Shown: piece after piece, positions 31,564 through 46,832 of the stretch
Numbering within the stretch: the first letter of the stretch is position 1
How the letters are laid out: each line of letters opens with the position of its first letter
Source of the DNA: a virus
Lineage: Duplodnaviria > Heunggongvirae > Uroviricota > Caudoviricetes
Direction: 5' to 3' (one strand)
Length of the DNA stretch: 64,000 nucleotides
IMG/VR virus record: IMGVR_UViG_3300032330_001609
Span: 133,975-197,974 of that record
Notes under the pieces: model-generated
Database searches by the model: none
What the model was told of the DNA's origin: nothing
The model's input: the letters and a program-made list of their open reading frames with translations, nothing else
Program-made: the position numbers and the translations under genes

Positions 31564-31571
31564 TATCTTTG
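31564..31571 (+). promoter_or_regulatory. Bacteroidota-type -7 box
   Basis: aaagtattatctttgtatcc before 31611. Confidence 0.55.
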
Positions 31572-31610
31572 TATCCAATTAAAATATTAATAATTAAAAA
31601 AGTAAAAAAA

Positions 31611-32450
31611 ATGAAGAAAATTTTAGTAATTGCTGGTGTAGTATTGTTATTTTTAACAATGTTCAATTCGTGTGACGTTATTAACGCAGGACACGTGGGG
31701 GTGAAAGTTGATATGTATGGTTCCGGTAAAGGAGTTCAGAACGTAACGGCTTGTACAGGATGGGTATTTTATAACCCAATCACAACAAAGGTTTATGAGT
31801 TCCCAACTTATATCCAACACAAAGAGTATAAGAAAACTGAAGATGGGGACAACTCCTTCACGGTTAACACAAAAGATGGTTCTGAGTTCAGAGTATCTCC
31901 AATCTTAAACTACTCTGTTAATCCGGATAAAGCACCTCAGATTTTTGCGAAGTATAGACGAACATTACCTGAGTTGGAGGAAGGATTCTTAAAGACTGCT
32001 ATTTATGACGCATTCCGATTGGCGACCAATAACTATACTGCTGAGGAATTGATATCTAATAGAGCAGCATTTGAGGTTAAGGTTAGAGGTTTGTTAGAAT
32101 CTCAGATAACTAAAGAAGGGTTTATTGTGAACCAATTTACATCTAACTTGGAATACCCAACATCATTCAAAAACGCAATCAACGCTAAGAACAACGCGGT
32201 ACAGGCGGCACTTACGGCTGAGAACCAAGTGAAGACTGCTGAGGCACAGGCTAAGATTAAAGTGGCGACAGCACAAGGTAACGCTGAGGCATTGTTAACC
32301 AACGCTAAGGCTGAGGCTGAATCAAACAGATTGAGACAACAAACTCTTACACCTATGTTGTTACAACAAAAATGGATTGAGAAATGGGATGGAGCACTTC
32401 CAACCACTCAATTGGCATCCGGGGCAAACACTATGTACGGATTAAAATAG
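31611..32450 (+). CDS. SPFH/band-7 (prohibitin/HflC-like) membrane protein
   Basis: N-terminal TM segment, an SPFH core and an A/Q-rich coiled-coil C-terminus. The ORF-track start lay inside the promoter, so the first ATG at 31611 was used. Confidence 0.75.
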   Translation: MKKILVIAGVVLLFLTMFNSCDVINAGHVGVKVDMYGSGKGVQNVTACTGWVFYNPITTKVYEFPTYIQHKEYKKTEDGDNSFTVNTKDGSEFRVSPILNYSVNPDKAPQIFAKYRRTLPELEEGFLKTAIYDAFRLATNNYTAEELISNRAAFEVKVRGLLESQITKEGFIVNQFTSNLEYPTSFKNAINAKNNAVQAALTAENQVKTAEAQAKIKVATAQGNAEALLTNAKAEAESNRLRQQTLTPMLLQQKWIEKWDGALPTTQLASGANTMYGLK

Positions 32451-34175: not shown

Positions 34176-34191
34176 TGAGGGTTTTTTTATA
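34163..34191. terminator. bidirectional terminator
   Basis: aaaaccctc-tgatg-agggtttttt. Confidence 0.65.
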
Positions 34192-34771
34192 TTTTATACT
34201 TTGTAAAGTCGGTTGATAATGGTTTTTCATTTTTGAAGTAGTATACTTCTGTAACACCATCATACTTTATTGTTTTTCTGTAAGCAGTTGGGACAGTTGC
34301 TCCGGATGGTAACTTAATTGATTTTGGACCAAAGATACATCTGATTTCAACCTGAACTACTTTATGTGTTTTTGCTAGTTCTCTTTCTCTTACCTCAAGT
34401 AATCTCCACGTTGTTCTATTGAGGTTCTCTTGTTGTAGGGAACAGTTCAGATAAGTGAATGTTTTGAATAGAGTTTCTTTATCACAATTAAAATCAGCTG
34501 CAGGTGCTAAATGACCTTTGTCGTAAGGATTTTTTTCATAATCTTTAGCATCAGATGTTTTAATTGTTTTGTCAACATAAAAATCCATTCCGGTTCTTGA
34601 TGCGGTTCCATTTGGACATTGAACGGTATAACGAATGAATTTAGGTTGTTCCAACTTCTCTGAGTATACAATCTCAAACATTGGAGTTTTAACCACAATA
34701 CTATCTCTCAACACTTGTGAGAATGATGTGAATGTGGTTAAAGTAATTAGTAATAATAAAATGTTTTTCAT
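34187..34771 (-). CDS. secreted DNA/RNA non-specific endonuclease (Serratia NUC family)
   Basis: Signal peptide plus the DKGHLAP active-site motif (DRGH family). Confidence 0.75.
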   Translation of the reverse strand: MKNILLLLITLTTFTSFSQVLRDSIVVKTPMFEIVYSEKLEQPKFIRYTVQCPNGTASRTGMDFYVDKTIKTSDAKDYEKNPYDKGHLAPAADFNCDKETLFKTFTYLNCSLQQENLNRTTWRLLEVRERELAKTHKVVQVEIRCIFGPKSIKLPSGATVPTAYRKTIKYDGVTEVYYFKNEKPLSTDFTKYKI

Positions 34772-34815
34772 AAATAATGTTTTACAATAAATATCCGTAT
34801 CAAAAATTTACTTCC

Positions 34816-34829
34816 GGTATATTTATAGG
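34816..34829 (+). promoter_or_regulatory. GATATTTAT-class motif
   Basis: ggtatatttatagg directly before the ATG at 34831. Confidence 0.4.
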
Positions 34830-34830
34830 T

Positions 34831-35541
34831 ATGAGTTTAAGTAAAGATTTAACAATAGTAATACCCTGTAAAAACGAGGGTTTAATCATAAAGAGAACTT
34901 TAGGATTATTAAACTTGCAAAACAATATCAAAGGTGTAAATGTAATGGTTGCCGATTCTTCAACAGATGATGGATTTACACAAAAATGTATTCTTAATCC
35001 AAGCTATAACAATATTAAAGTAAAAATGGTTAAAGGTGGATTTCCTGCTGAAGCCAGAAACAATGGAACCAAAAAAATAAAAACACCTTATGTTTTATTC
35101 TTGGATGCTGACATATACCTGAATGATTATAATTTATTAAATGAAATGGTTGAGGTAATGAAAAAAAATGATTATCATTTATCCACGGTTAAAATGAGAA
35201 CTGATGATGGTGACTACAATTATGTATATAAATCATTTGATGTTATCCAATATCTAACCAAGTTCTCCACACCATTTGCGGTCGGAGGATTTATGTTATT
35301 TAATTTAGAGGTATTCAATTCATTGGGAGGATTTAATCCGGATGATAAGTTTGCCGAGGATTATCATTTAAGTTCAAAGATAAACCCAAATAAGTTTTAT
35401 GTGGCAGACAAAATTGTTTATACCACATCAAGACGATTCAAGAACAAAGGTTTATTCTATATGGTTAAGATGATGATTAAATCTTGGTTTAATAGAAACA
35501 ACGATGAGTTCTTCACAAAGGAACATAATTACTGGACATAA
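34831..35541 (+). CDS. glycosyltransferase family 2
   Basis: IVIPCKNEG...DSSTDDG...LDAD; start trimmed to the ATG preceded by GGTATATTTATAGG. Confidence 0.7.
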   Translation: MSLSKDLTIVIPCKNEGLIIKRTLGLLNLQNNIKGVNVMVADSSTDDGFTQKCILNPSYNNIKVKMVKGGFPAEARNNGTKKIKTPYVLFLDADIYLNDYNLLNEMVEVMKKNDYHLSTVKMRTDDGDYNYVYKSFDVIQYLTKFSTPFAVGGFMLFNLEVFNSLGGFNPDDKFAEDYHLSSKINPNKFYVADKIVYTTSRRFKNKGLFYMVKMMIKSWFNRNNDEFFTKEHNYWT

Positions 35542-46139: not shown

Positions 46140-46310
46140 ATGAAACATATTATAAATTTATTAGTGATACTAATATTGACAGGTTTTTCGGTGGGAATTG
46201 CATATCTACAAGTCAATAATCCAAAAGATGTTTGGTTTTTGGCTTACCTACCATTATGTATTTTTATGTTCCTTTGGGGTCTAAAACTTGATGGTGATTA
46301 TAAAAATTAA
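46140..46310 (+). CDS. small membrane protein (56 aa)
   Basis: Translated by hand (MKHIINLLVILILTGFSVG...); its start sits 2 nt after the upstream stop. Confidence 0.35.
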   Translation: MKHIINLLVILILTGFSVGIAYLQVNNPKDVWFLAYLPLCIFMFLWGLKLDGDYKN

Positions 46311-46317
46311 ATAAAAT

Positions 46318-46493
46318 AGTCAGGTGACGGAATGTTAGACGTTACCCACCAACACACATAGGGAGATTCAGATTGTTGTGTGTGCAGATTGTAGCACGTA
46401 TTATAGCGTAAGTGACCGAAACTAAGGTCGTAGTATAATCGTAGTGTATAGGCAAAGCAATCACTCATACAGGTTCAAGTCCTGTCCTGACTA
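46318..46493 (+). ncRNA. tRNA-like element (acceptor stem plus T-arm) with a roughly 100-nt internal insertion
   Basis: The 3' end acagg-TTCAAGT-cctgt-cctgact-a is a canonical T-arm plus acceptor 3' strand with discriminator. The exact complement agtcagg occurs once, 176 nt upstream. Confidence 0.35.
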
Positions 46494-46832
46494 CTAATGT
46501 CTATAACCTTGTGGCATTTTGAAGACAAATCCTTCACCATCACCACAATCAAAGAATGCTTTAATTTGGGGAGTTTTACCAATACTAAAAGGATTGTTAG
46601 TGTCGGCTCCCATCATACTGAATAATGTTTTAATATCTTCGTCGATTTTAATCATTTGCATTTCATCCAAACATTCTTCAGTGGTAAGGTTAACCACATA
46701 ATTCCAACCTAAAAATGATGAATGCTCTCTACCTAAATCAGAGAATAAATCATCAACACTTACTACCCCGGATATCACGGGGTATTTTTTCATTATTACT
46801 TTTTCAACTGAGTATTTAATCTTTTCTTCCAT
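46494..46832 (-). CDS. hypothetical protein
   Basis: 112 aa; its stop abuts the end of the tRNA-like element. Confidence 0.45.
   Translation of the reverse strand: MEEKIKYSVEKVIMKKYPVISGVVSVDDLFSDLGREHSSFLGWNYVVNLTTEECLDEMQMIKIDEDIKTLFSMMGADTNNPFSIGKTPQIKAFFDCGDGEGFVFKMPQGYRH

Follow-up and report, generated by a model that had tools for sequence, protein, structure and literature searches.

The window analysed here is a 64,000-nucleotide (nt) stretch of viral DNA (Duplodnaviria; Heunggongvirae; Uroviricota; Caudoviricetes), positions 133,975 to 197,974 of IMG/VR record IMGVR_UViG_3300032330_001609. On its plus strand, between two genes, lies a 176-nt element at 46318-46493 whose two ends form the upper half of a transfer RNA (tRNA) cloverleaf of the leucine type, while a long variable domain occupies the place of the anticodon arm. 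The parts of the element, numbered where possible as in tRNA, are the following.

46318-46493, plus strand: whole tRNA-Leu-like element, from position 1 to discriminator 73, 176 nt, matched end to end by the family model
46317, plus strand: U(-1), a conserved 5' flanking base (T in the window), with a putative role as RNase P context
46318-46324, plus strand: 5' strand of the acceptor stem, AGUCAGG, forming 7/7 Watson-Crick pairs with 46486-46492
46325-46343, plus strand: U8, G9, the D arm and position 26, with stem ACG/CGU plus G.A and loop AAUGUUAG
46327-46342, plus strand: the D arm itself, ACGG-AATGTTAG-ACGT, after U8 and G9
46344-46468, plus strand: variable domain of 125 nt, replacing the anticodon arm and the variable arm
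46414-46429, plus strand: hairpin GACC-GAAACUAA-GGUC inside the variable domain, common to both predicted folds
46369 and 46385, plus strand: direct repeat CAGATTGT inside the variable domain
46468, plus strand: U48, before the T stem
46469-46485, plus strand: T arm ACAGG-UUCAAGU-CCUGU, with stem 46469-46473/46481-46485 and loop TTCAAGT at 46474-46480
46486-46492, plus strand: 3' strand of the acceptor stem, CCUGACU
46493-46494, plus strand: discriminator A73 and conserved C74; CCA is not encoded

A first-pass annotation of this DNA had described a perfect acceptor stem of 7 base pairs (bp), a T arm, a discriminator and a D-arm-like stretch, all of which are present. It had also noted that a minus-strand open reading frame (ORF), 46494-46832, ends exactly at the 3' end of the element. 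This is borne out, and C74 doubles as the first base of the stop codon of that ORF. Other statements need adjustment. The "roughly 100-nt insertion" indeed lacks a standard anticodon arm, and the stretch from D arm to T arm actually measures 125 nt. AGTCAGG, said to occur once, has two sites in the window, 46318 and 52745, and is unique only locally. Finally, the locus had been considered devoid of coding capacity; an ATG-initiated minus-strand ORF of 53 amino acids (aa) does span 46307-46468, but it is rich in Cys, Tyr, Trp and His, has no match in PHROG families and is treated here as spurious.

The element lies far beyond chance expectation. The 25-nt 3' consensus of the family described below fits the window with no mismatch (expectation in shuffled sequence, 0.00), and the 17-nt 5' consensus with a single mismatch (expectation, 0.08), this mismatch being a compensated change in the D stem, where the window has A10-U25 and the family consensus is G10-C25. 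The motif GGTTCRANYCC occurs once in the 64 kb, at the T arm of the element. Local G+C content is about 0.41-0.43, compared with about 0.32 across the window.

Standard RNA detectors do not recognize the element as a tRNA. ARAGORN reports no tRNA or transfer-messenger RNA (tmRNA) gene in the 64-kb window with default settings, and nothing there when introns are allowed (-i0,200). Rfam gives no match in the 64 kb at gathering threshold. When 601 nt around the element are searched at E<=10, the Rfam tRNA model (RF00005, curated threshold 29 bits) reaches 17.3 bits on 46426-46493 only, with a wrong 5' end and no anticodon arm; the other matches at this level are chance snoRNA hits, and none belongs to an intron or tmRNA family.

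The element is nevertheless a member of a large family. Its exact 3' 25-mer (ACAGGTTCAAGTCCTGTCCTGACTA) is present in 56 IMG/VR contigs. In nearly all of them, AGTCAGG and then TGGCGGAAT(T)GGTAGACGC are found 74-176 nt upstream of the 25-mer, and this 5' acceptor strand and D arm are near-invariant though they lay outside the search query. The stretch between the conserved ends, on the other hand, differs completely in sequence and length from contig to contig. A further IMG/VR scan with the 5' 15-mer gave at least 120 matches, and all family counts rest on the loci fetched from these scans. A structural scan of the fetched loci yields at least 251 distinct elements of 67-180 nt in about 200 contigs from uncultivated viruses or metagenome-assembled genomes (MAGs), longer matches being two adjacent elements joined. 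Lengths form a continuum between 67 and 180 nt without any peak at exon size.

Members of the family share the AGUCAGG/CCUGACU acceptor stem with A73, a tRNA-Leu-type D arm, the T arm ACAGG-UUCRARU-CCUGU, U(-1) and C74. Conservation is 81-100% at most of the first 16 and most of the last 26 positions of the element, the main exceptions being one D-loop and two T-loop positions (62-73%). The 5' acceptor heptamer is AGUCAGG in 173 of 220 elements, and variants of it are compensated on the other strand (for example GGUCAGG/CCUGACC and UGUCAGG/CCUGACA). Among 203 distinct elements, T stands at position -1 in 85% and C follows the discriminator in 97%; the window has both. A73 is found in 88% of members and U48, the T before the T stem, in 87%. 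A covariance model (R1), built from 39 diverse members with the window left out, was run on the window with filters off. Its single match covers plus-strand positions 46318-46493 exactly, extends over model positions 1-105 and scores 60.2 bits (E 3e-13), the next-best score in the window being 12 bits. On the 0.92 Mb of fetched loci, R1 gives 187 matches at E<=1e-6, and true tRNA-Leu genes cross-match it at 40-54 bits.

BLAST searches of GenBank phages with the flanks, the element and a scaffold-only query found no family member in cultured phages; they returned only tRNA-Leu D-arm matches and an analogous element of Klebsiella phages, discussed below. No description of an AGUCAGG-acceptor family or of its sequence strings was found in the literature searched, and an earlier description may exist outside it; one survey mentions unspecified tRNA-like candidates in IMG/VR (PMC10690425).

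Selection on this family acts at the RNA level. In a model-based alignment of 150 hits, itself fitted to the model and containing a few true tRNA-Leu genes, 99.2% of the cells are paired and compensatory double changes occur in 12 of 15 pairs. None of 500 shuffles matches the observed pairing and compensation values, and slid controls fall to 21-42% pairing. The D stem was never used as a search or selection criterion, and its variants are GCG/CGC (135), GUG/CAC (9), GCU/AGC (4), GCA/UGC (4) and ACG/CGU (3, one of them in the window). All three stems, acceptor, D and T, thus covary across the family. Acceptor complementarity, on whose persistence in homologous phages the first-pass annotation had let its case depend, is kept there with compensatory changes.

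The family probably descends from tRNA-Leu, a class II tRNA-Leu being the likely ancestor. Class II tRNA-Leu and the family have in common a 7-bp acceptor stem, A73, C74 after the discriminator (also carried by the true tRNAs of the same loci), A15 together with U48, and a T loop of sequence UUCAAGU or UUCGAAU, the former being that of the true tRNA-Leu genes in the same loci. The D-arm consensus of the family (UGGCGGAAUUGGUAGACGC) matches annotated phage tRNA-Leu genes at 96%. In contrast, the acceptor stem differs from that of every true tRNA-Leu in the same phages, the anticodon stem-loop is missing and a type-specific insert of 25-125 nt is present. The window copy is further removed, with only 17 bits under the Rfam tRNA model and no G18G19.

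Family members, with very few exceptions, lack a canonical anticodon arm. Such an arm, defined as a stem of at least 4 bp with a 7-nt loop, U33 and R37 at the canonical place, is found in 3 of the 197 members with a recognisable D stem, and one of the three is a genuine tRNA-Cys. Short members (83-87 nt) likewise lack it. ARAGORN calls on members give scattered "anticodons", odd loop sizes and arbitrary intron positions. Without an anticodon, the product cannot read codons. In three hand-checked loci, the generic Rfam tRNA model accepts about 40% of members, at 31-50 bits, compared with 50-77 bits for the true tRNAs there. Since many members pass this model, such elements are probably annotated as weak tRNAs or pseudogenes.

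The insert is hypervariable. When compared over the region between D and T arms, 220 elements fall into 183 BLAST clusters, and k-mer enrichment across inserts finds nothing conserved beyond (U)CAU beside the T stem. Within a type, however, structure is conserved. In a five-member type, insert pairs 27-76 and 31-72 show compensatory changes, and in a three-member type three consecutive insert pairs do so. Moreover, 135 non-redundant inserts have a mean minimum free energy (MFE) z-score of -0.67 (t = -7.2, p 5e-11); the value for the window insert is -1.16. Inserts are therefore structured and constrained, at least in types other than that of the window. The window insert has no orthologue, so that the case for insert covariation rests on those other types.

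Expansions are also seen elsewhere in the cloverleaf. A clean hairpin is inserted in the D loop at L059 3577-3747, L222 3477-3660 and L219 4077-4269 (L numbers denote fetched loci), one example reading GGCGGAAT[TTAATCGATT...AATCGATTA]TCGGTAGACGT. The family thus tolerates expansions at several sites beyond the anticodon region. Two loci, L086 (plus strand, from 1912) and L094 (plus strand, from 5114), have elements whose 3' acceptor strand is interrupted by an insertion of about 48-75 nt; in L086 the sequence reads ...CCTGTC[TTCGGCTATGTAAGATGCATGAAGGAGG...]TTGACTA. These two insertions are alike (CGGCT.GGTAA.ATG.ATGA.AGGTA.AGAAAT) and could represent a small mobile or excisable element.

The following genes surround the element in the window.

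46140-46310, plus strand: 56-aa ORF, last gene of the plus-strand block, with its stop 7 nt before the start of the element
46494-46832, minus strand: convergent 112-aa ORF abutting the element, present only in the variant of the locus found in the window and L249
44374-44940, plus strand: 188-aa protein resembling anti-CBASS Acb1/2H phosphoesterases (Pfam PF23474, 33.4 bits; PHROG "RNA ligase")

The 56-aa ORF is also called as a gene on related contigs and has no family match in Pfam or PHROG. The 112-aa ORF has no Pfam or PHROG family and no IMG/VR relatives; L248, L250 and L222 lack it and have a terminator in its place after the element. The Acb1-like gene stands 1.4 kb upstream of the element among small accessory ORFs, which suggests an accessory or counter-defence region. 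No tRNA-related enzyme or integrase was found among the 41 window ORFs screened, a part of the window's ORFs of which 10 were compared with both Pfam and PHROGs and the rest with one of them. An identical copy of the window element is present on Logan contig ERR2848572_2753.

The locus was compared between contigs that all carry a neighbouring gene for a 204-aa protein and whose flanks are 87-100% identical. Identities below are those of the 204-aa protein to its counterpart in the window.

L249: 100%, the region being identical at the nucleotide level; same element as the window
L248 and L250: identical, the 2.2 kb upstream being about 90% identical in nucleotides; another type, of 122 nt, followed by a terminator
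L222: 92%; a type of 184 nt whose D loop contains an inserted hairpin
L059: 87%; five elements around the gene
L185: 89%; a copy cut short within the T loop
L182, L183 and L184: 94-96%; no element

Near-identical phages thus carry different types or none, and the locus is a hotspot of turnover. In L059, the closest viral contig, the positional counterpart of the window element is 110 nt long, scores 48 bits as a tRNA and has the loop CUUAAAUA and a 37-nt variable region. In L185 (2664-2880), the break falls inside the T loop (ACAGGTTCGA/TAACCGG..., the slash marking the break) and is followed by a hairpin and reverse-strand genes, which indicates that rearrangement can destroy copies. Many phages carry 4-9 elements in an array on one strand, among real tRNA genes.

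Concerning hosts, the exact 3' 25-mer is found in none of 185,579 species reference genomes. The commoner UUCGAAU variant is found on 18 contigs, all from MAGs (10 of them Bacteroidota) and none from an isolate genome; the element is full-length in 17 of the 18, that is, wherever the whole of it is visible. Both facts argue against an origin as a host tRNA or attachment site. Carriers of the family are probably phages of Bacteroidota.

Taken together, these data make it probable that 46318-46493 encodes a non-decoding, tRNA-shaped RNA of a large tRNA-Leu-derived phage family, in which the top half would be a handle and the insert the functional part. Of the readings offered by the first-pass annotation, that of a tRNA-like structured RNA is the one that holds, now with a family in which to place the element.

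Several observations weigh against this reading. The window copy is the longest single element found. Its D loop AAUGUUAG lacks the GG (G18G19), as in a minority of family members; this GG normally locks the tRNA elbow. It is a single copy, and ARAGORN finds no tRNA gene beside it in the 64 kb. Its insert has no relative among 181 loci or in IMG/VR, the only other copy being 100% identical, and two alternative constrained folds of it agree only in the hairpin 46414-46429 and in a helix using one CAGATTGT repeat, so the prediction is not robust. Folded alone, the 176 nt retain the acceptor stem and T arm with a modest stability (z -1.8 vs shuffles). Within the family at large, 28 of 130 5' halves are without a strict 3' partner, the pairing statistics come from a model-fitted alignment, and no partner protein emerges within about 7 kb, since an all-against-all clustering of 3,024 ORFs gives no family in more than 18 loci. 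Nor do the inserts point to a target by complementarity: the best complement of the window insert in the window is 12 nt (E 0.36), and local complementarity over 101 elements averages 10.17 nt compared with 10.12 nt in shuffles. An antisense or guide role was rejected on these grounds, complementarity being equal to that of shuffles and the window offering no target.

The main rival explanation is that the window copy is a decaying pseudogene of a phage tRNA-Leu or of a family member, with ends kept intact by recent acquisition or by gene conversion from a paralogue. Its exceptional length, the loss of the D-loop GG, its isolation in 64 kb without tRNA neighbours, the close relatives with a truncated copy or none and the unpartnered 5' halves all agree with decay, and the damaged copies, in L185 and among the 130 halves, indicate that some copies do decay. 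However, the window agrees with the consensus at 25 of 25 3' positions, at 7 of 7 5' acceptor positions, at U(-1) and at C74, and its sole D-stem change is compensated. Uniform decay would not leave precisely the paired and flanking positions untouched. In addition, inserts of other types show compensatory change, and inserts fold better than shuffles. We therefore regard decay as unlikely, while giving it more weight than any of the other alternatives.

Another possibility is that the element is a module at the DNA level, whose conserved ends act as homology arms or as recombination or homing sites that move cassettes, the tRNA shape being only ancestral. In near-identical phages, one locus does hold different inserts flanked by the same ends; endonuclease-like ORFs, GIY-YIG included, rank among the most frequent neighbours (about 15 loci each); and U(-1) and A73 lengthen the ends to an 8-bp terminal inverted repeat. 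But DNA sites would conserve sequence and not pairing, so that the compensatory changes that keep the acceptor, D and T stems paired weigh against this explanation. Furthermore, the conserved blocks are exactly the tRNA arms, and no endonuclease gene adjoins the window copy. A DNA-level role would also be compatible with a function as RNA. As an explanation of its own, it appears quite improbable.

The intron-containing tRNA proposed by the first-pass annotation, to be spliced into a decoding tRNA, fares worse. The outer cloverleaf is perfect, and some members have excisable-looking hairpin insertions in the D loop or the 3' acceptor strand. Yet the intron mode of ARAGORN is empty in the window and elsewhere places anticodons and introns arbitrarily, Rfam offers no matching intron family, and the continuous length distribution has no mode of exon size. 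The near-absence of canonical anticodon arms (3/197), which extends to members of only 83-87 nt, also speaks against it, and we hold this explanation to be very improbable.

A miniature tmRNA-like molecule, with a tRNA-like domain and a short tag-coding stretch, had also been suggested. Indeed, in tmRNA too the acceptor and T arm persist where the anticodon arm has given way to other RNA, true tmRNAs are encoded by related phages, and the window insert contains GCA CGT ATT ATA GCG TAA. Against this, neither ARAGORN nor Rfam calls a tmRNA, and pair 3:70 is U-A rather than the G.U needed for charging with alanine. The D arm is complete and of the Leu type, unlike that of tmRNA; the inserts of many members are too short for coding, and inserts share no conserved motif. 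The suggestion is accordingly even harder to sustain than that of an intron. Lastly, the same annotation had already ranked low an attP-type origin, in which the element would be a piece of a host tRNA gene serving for integration, and this can practically be dismissed. The T arm and 3' acceptor end of such genes are commonly found in phage attachment sites, but none of the 185,579 species genomes contains the 25-mer, and the majority variant is confined to MAG contigs bearing full-length elements, with no isolate genome among its carriers. The cloverleaf also has its 5' half, and no integrase is among the 41 screened ORFs.

Returning to the non-decoding tRNA-shaped RNA, we infer its transcription, processing, possible charging and the role of its insert as follows. 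The element would be transcribed together with the plus-strand genes that precede it. What the family conserves makes up the acceptor/T helix and the elbow, which are known to be recognized by tRNA-maturation enzymes. RNase P would cleave after U(-1), and the 3' end would be trimmed, then completed to CCA after C74. The product would be a stable RNA of about 178 nt without anticodon. Its conserved half may serve as a handle for processing and stability, by analogy with engineered tRNA scaffolds and the TMERs of MHV68, in which a tRNA body is the processing and stability handle for an unrelated RNA payload. These systems are artificial or eukaryotic, and the payload of TMERs follows the tRNA-like part instead of replacing the anticodon arm. 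The conserved half may possibly be a leucylation handle too, because it retains features important to E. coli LeuRS, namely A73, A14/A15-U48 and the D/T elbow.

The variable domain would then be the type-specific functional part. Our best guess for its target is a protein or RNA of the phage-host conflict, because types turn over rapidly at one accessory locus near an Acb1-like gene. More tentatively, and we consider this extension rather doubtful, the phages, probably of Bacteroidota, might keep a library of hundreds of tRNA-scaffolded effector RNAs. In such a library, the near-invariant top half would bring in RNase P, 3' trimming and CCA addition of the host, perhaps also LeuRS or EF-Tu, and the inserts would act as decoys or aptamer-like domains against host or rival-phage factors, for example tRNA-targeting defence nucleases, and be swapped via recombination in the arms. 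If true, nature would have its own version of the engineered tRNA scaffold, phages would possess a new class of counter-defence RNA, and RNAs C and D of phage T4 might be accounted for as well.

Besides class II tRNA-Leu, the closest known systems are two kinds of phage RNA. Phage T4 makes stable RNAs C and D (species 1 and 2; rnaC, rnaD), which are still without a known function (PMC3014915, PMC9697503). Like the family, these RNAs and a 128-nt element of Klebsiella phages are phage-encoded, longer than a tRNA, and have a tRNA-type T arm and paired ends. They stand in or beside tRNA clusters, as do many family members but not the window copy. Their acceptor sequences differ from that of the family: rnaC gives only a partial R1 match of 18 bits and has two U.U mismatches in its acceptor, and rnaD gives no R1 match. 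They are also single conserved genes in cultured phages, in contrast with the many hypervariable types of the family. The Klebsiella element (PP738760.1 154797-154924, equivalent to L057 1408-1535) occurs in about 70 records of T4-like Klebsiella phages, directly upstream of the genuine tRNA-Leu gene. Its architecture is that of the family, with a D arm of the Leu type, A73 and GCAGG-UUCAAGU-CCUGC as T arm, and its R1 score of 43 bits exceeds that of the neighbouring genuine tRNA-Leu. One record names it a "tRNA-Val pseudogene"; elsewhere it is mostly unannotated or overlapped by hypothetical ORFs.

Two other systems share part of the design. In tmRNA (SsrA), the tRNA acceptor and T arm are kept, the anticodon arm is replaced and the molecule is processed like a tRNA; its G3.U70 pair, degenerate D arm, pseudoknots and tag ORF are not found in the window element. 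YrlA, a non-coding, Y RNA-like tRNA mimic of bacteria, reportedly also occurs in phages and has a module mimicking the acceptor, D and T arms of tRNA. It is said to be permuted, with its ends at the anticodon-stem position forming a conserved Ro60-binding helix, whereas the ends of the family are the acceptor stem, its inserts have no conserved helix and no Rfam match is found. YrlA was set aside on account of its permuted ends and the missing Rfam match.

Some observations on the same contigs are worth recording. A second odd tRNA-like family, of about 70 nt with acceptor GGCTATG/CATGGCC and a 6-nt "anticodon" loop, is present at L004 870-939 (minus strand) and in some 10 further loci, separated by 3 nt from the AGTCAGG-family element upstream of it. 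Phage tmRNA genes lie on family-bearing or window-related contigs (L055 3065-3464, L063 207-567 and L155 5724-6218), one of their tags reading ...MTFEDVMSFVGADYAVAA. In the window itself, about 900 nt (52780-53660) have no ORF of 90 aa or more and contain inverted repeats with C/G runs (ttccccccatttaatggaggggacttcgtcccccctctgaagaaggggac) and AT-rich repeats; the stretch is a candidate regulatory region, replication origin or further RNA locus. Pfam matches in the window include a non-specific DNA/RNA endonuclease, an SPFH/Band 7 protein and two family-2 glycosyltransferases (34187-34771, minus; 31569-32450, plus; 34777-35541, plus; 59336-60058, plus). Most other window ORFs have no family match, which points to a poorly charted phage lineage.

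The tRNA-like oddities of phages, such as T4 RNAs C and D, which have gone about 50 years without an assigned function, have been taken for isolated curiosities or annotated as tRNA pseudogenes. The present family indicates that one such design exists in many copies and is actively maintained as a large family: its tRNA-Leu top half is frozen, while the structured insert is hypervariable and comes in hundreds of types. It gives a concrete, testable model for non-decoding tRNA-like phage RNAs, and the 128-nt element of T4-like Klebsiella phages, as a culturable analogue, could serve as a model for it. Finally, low-scoring "tRNA" calls in such phage arrays are not decoders, and this affects tRNA gene counts and the arguments on codon usage that are built on them.

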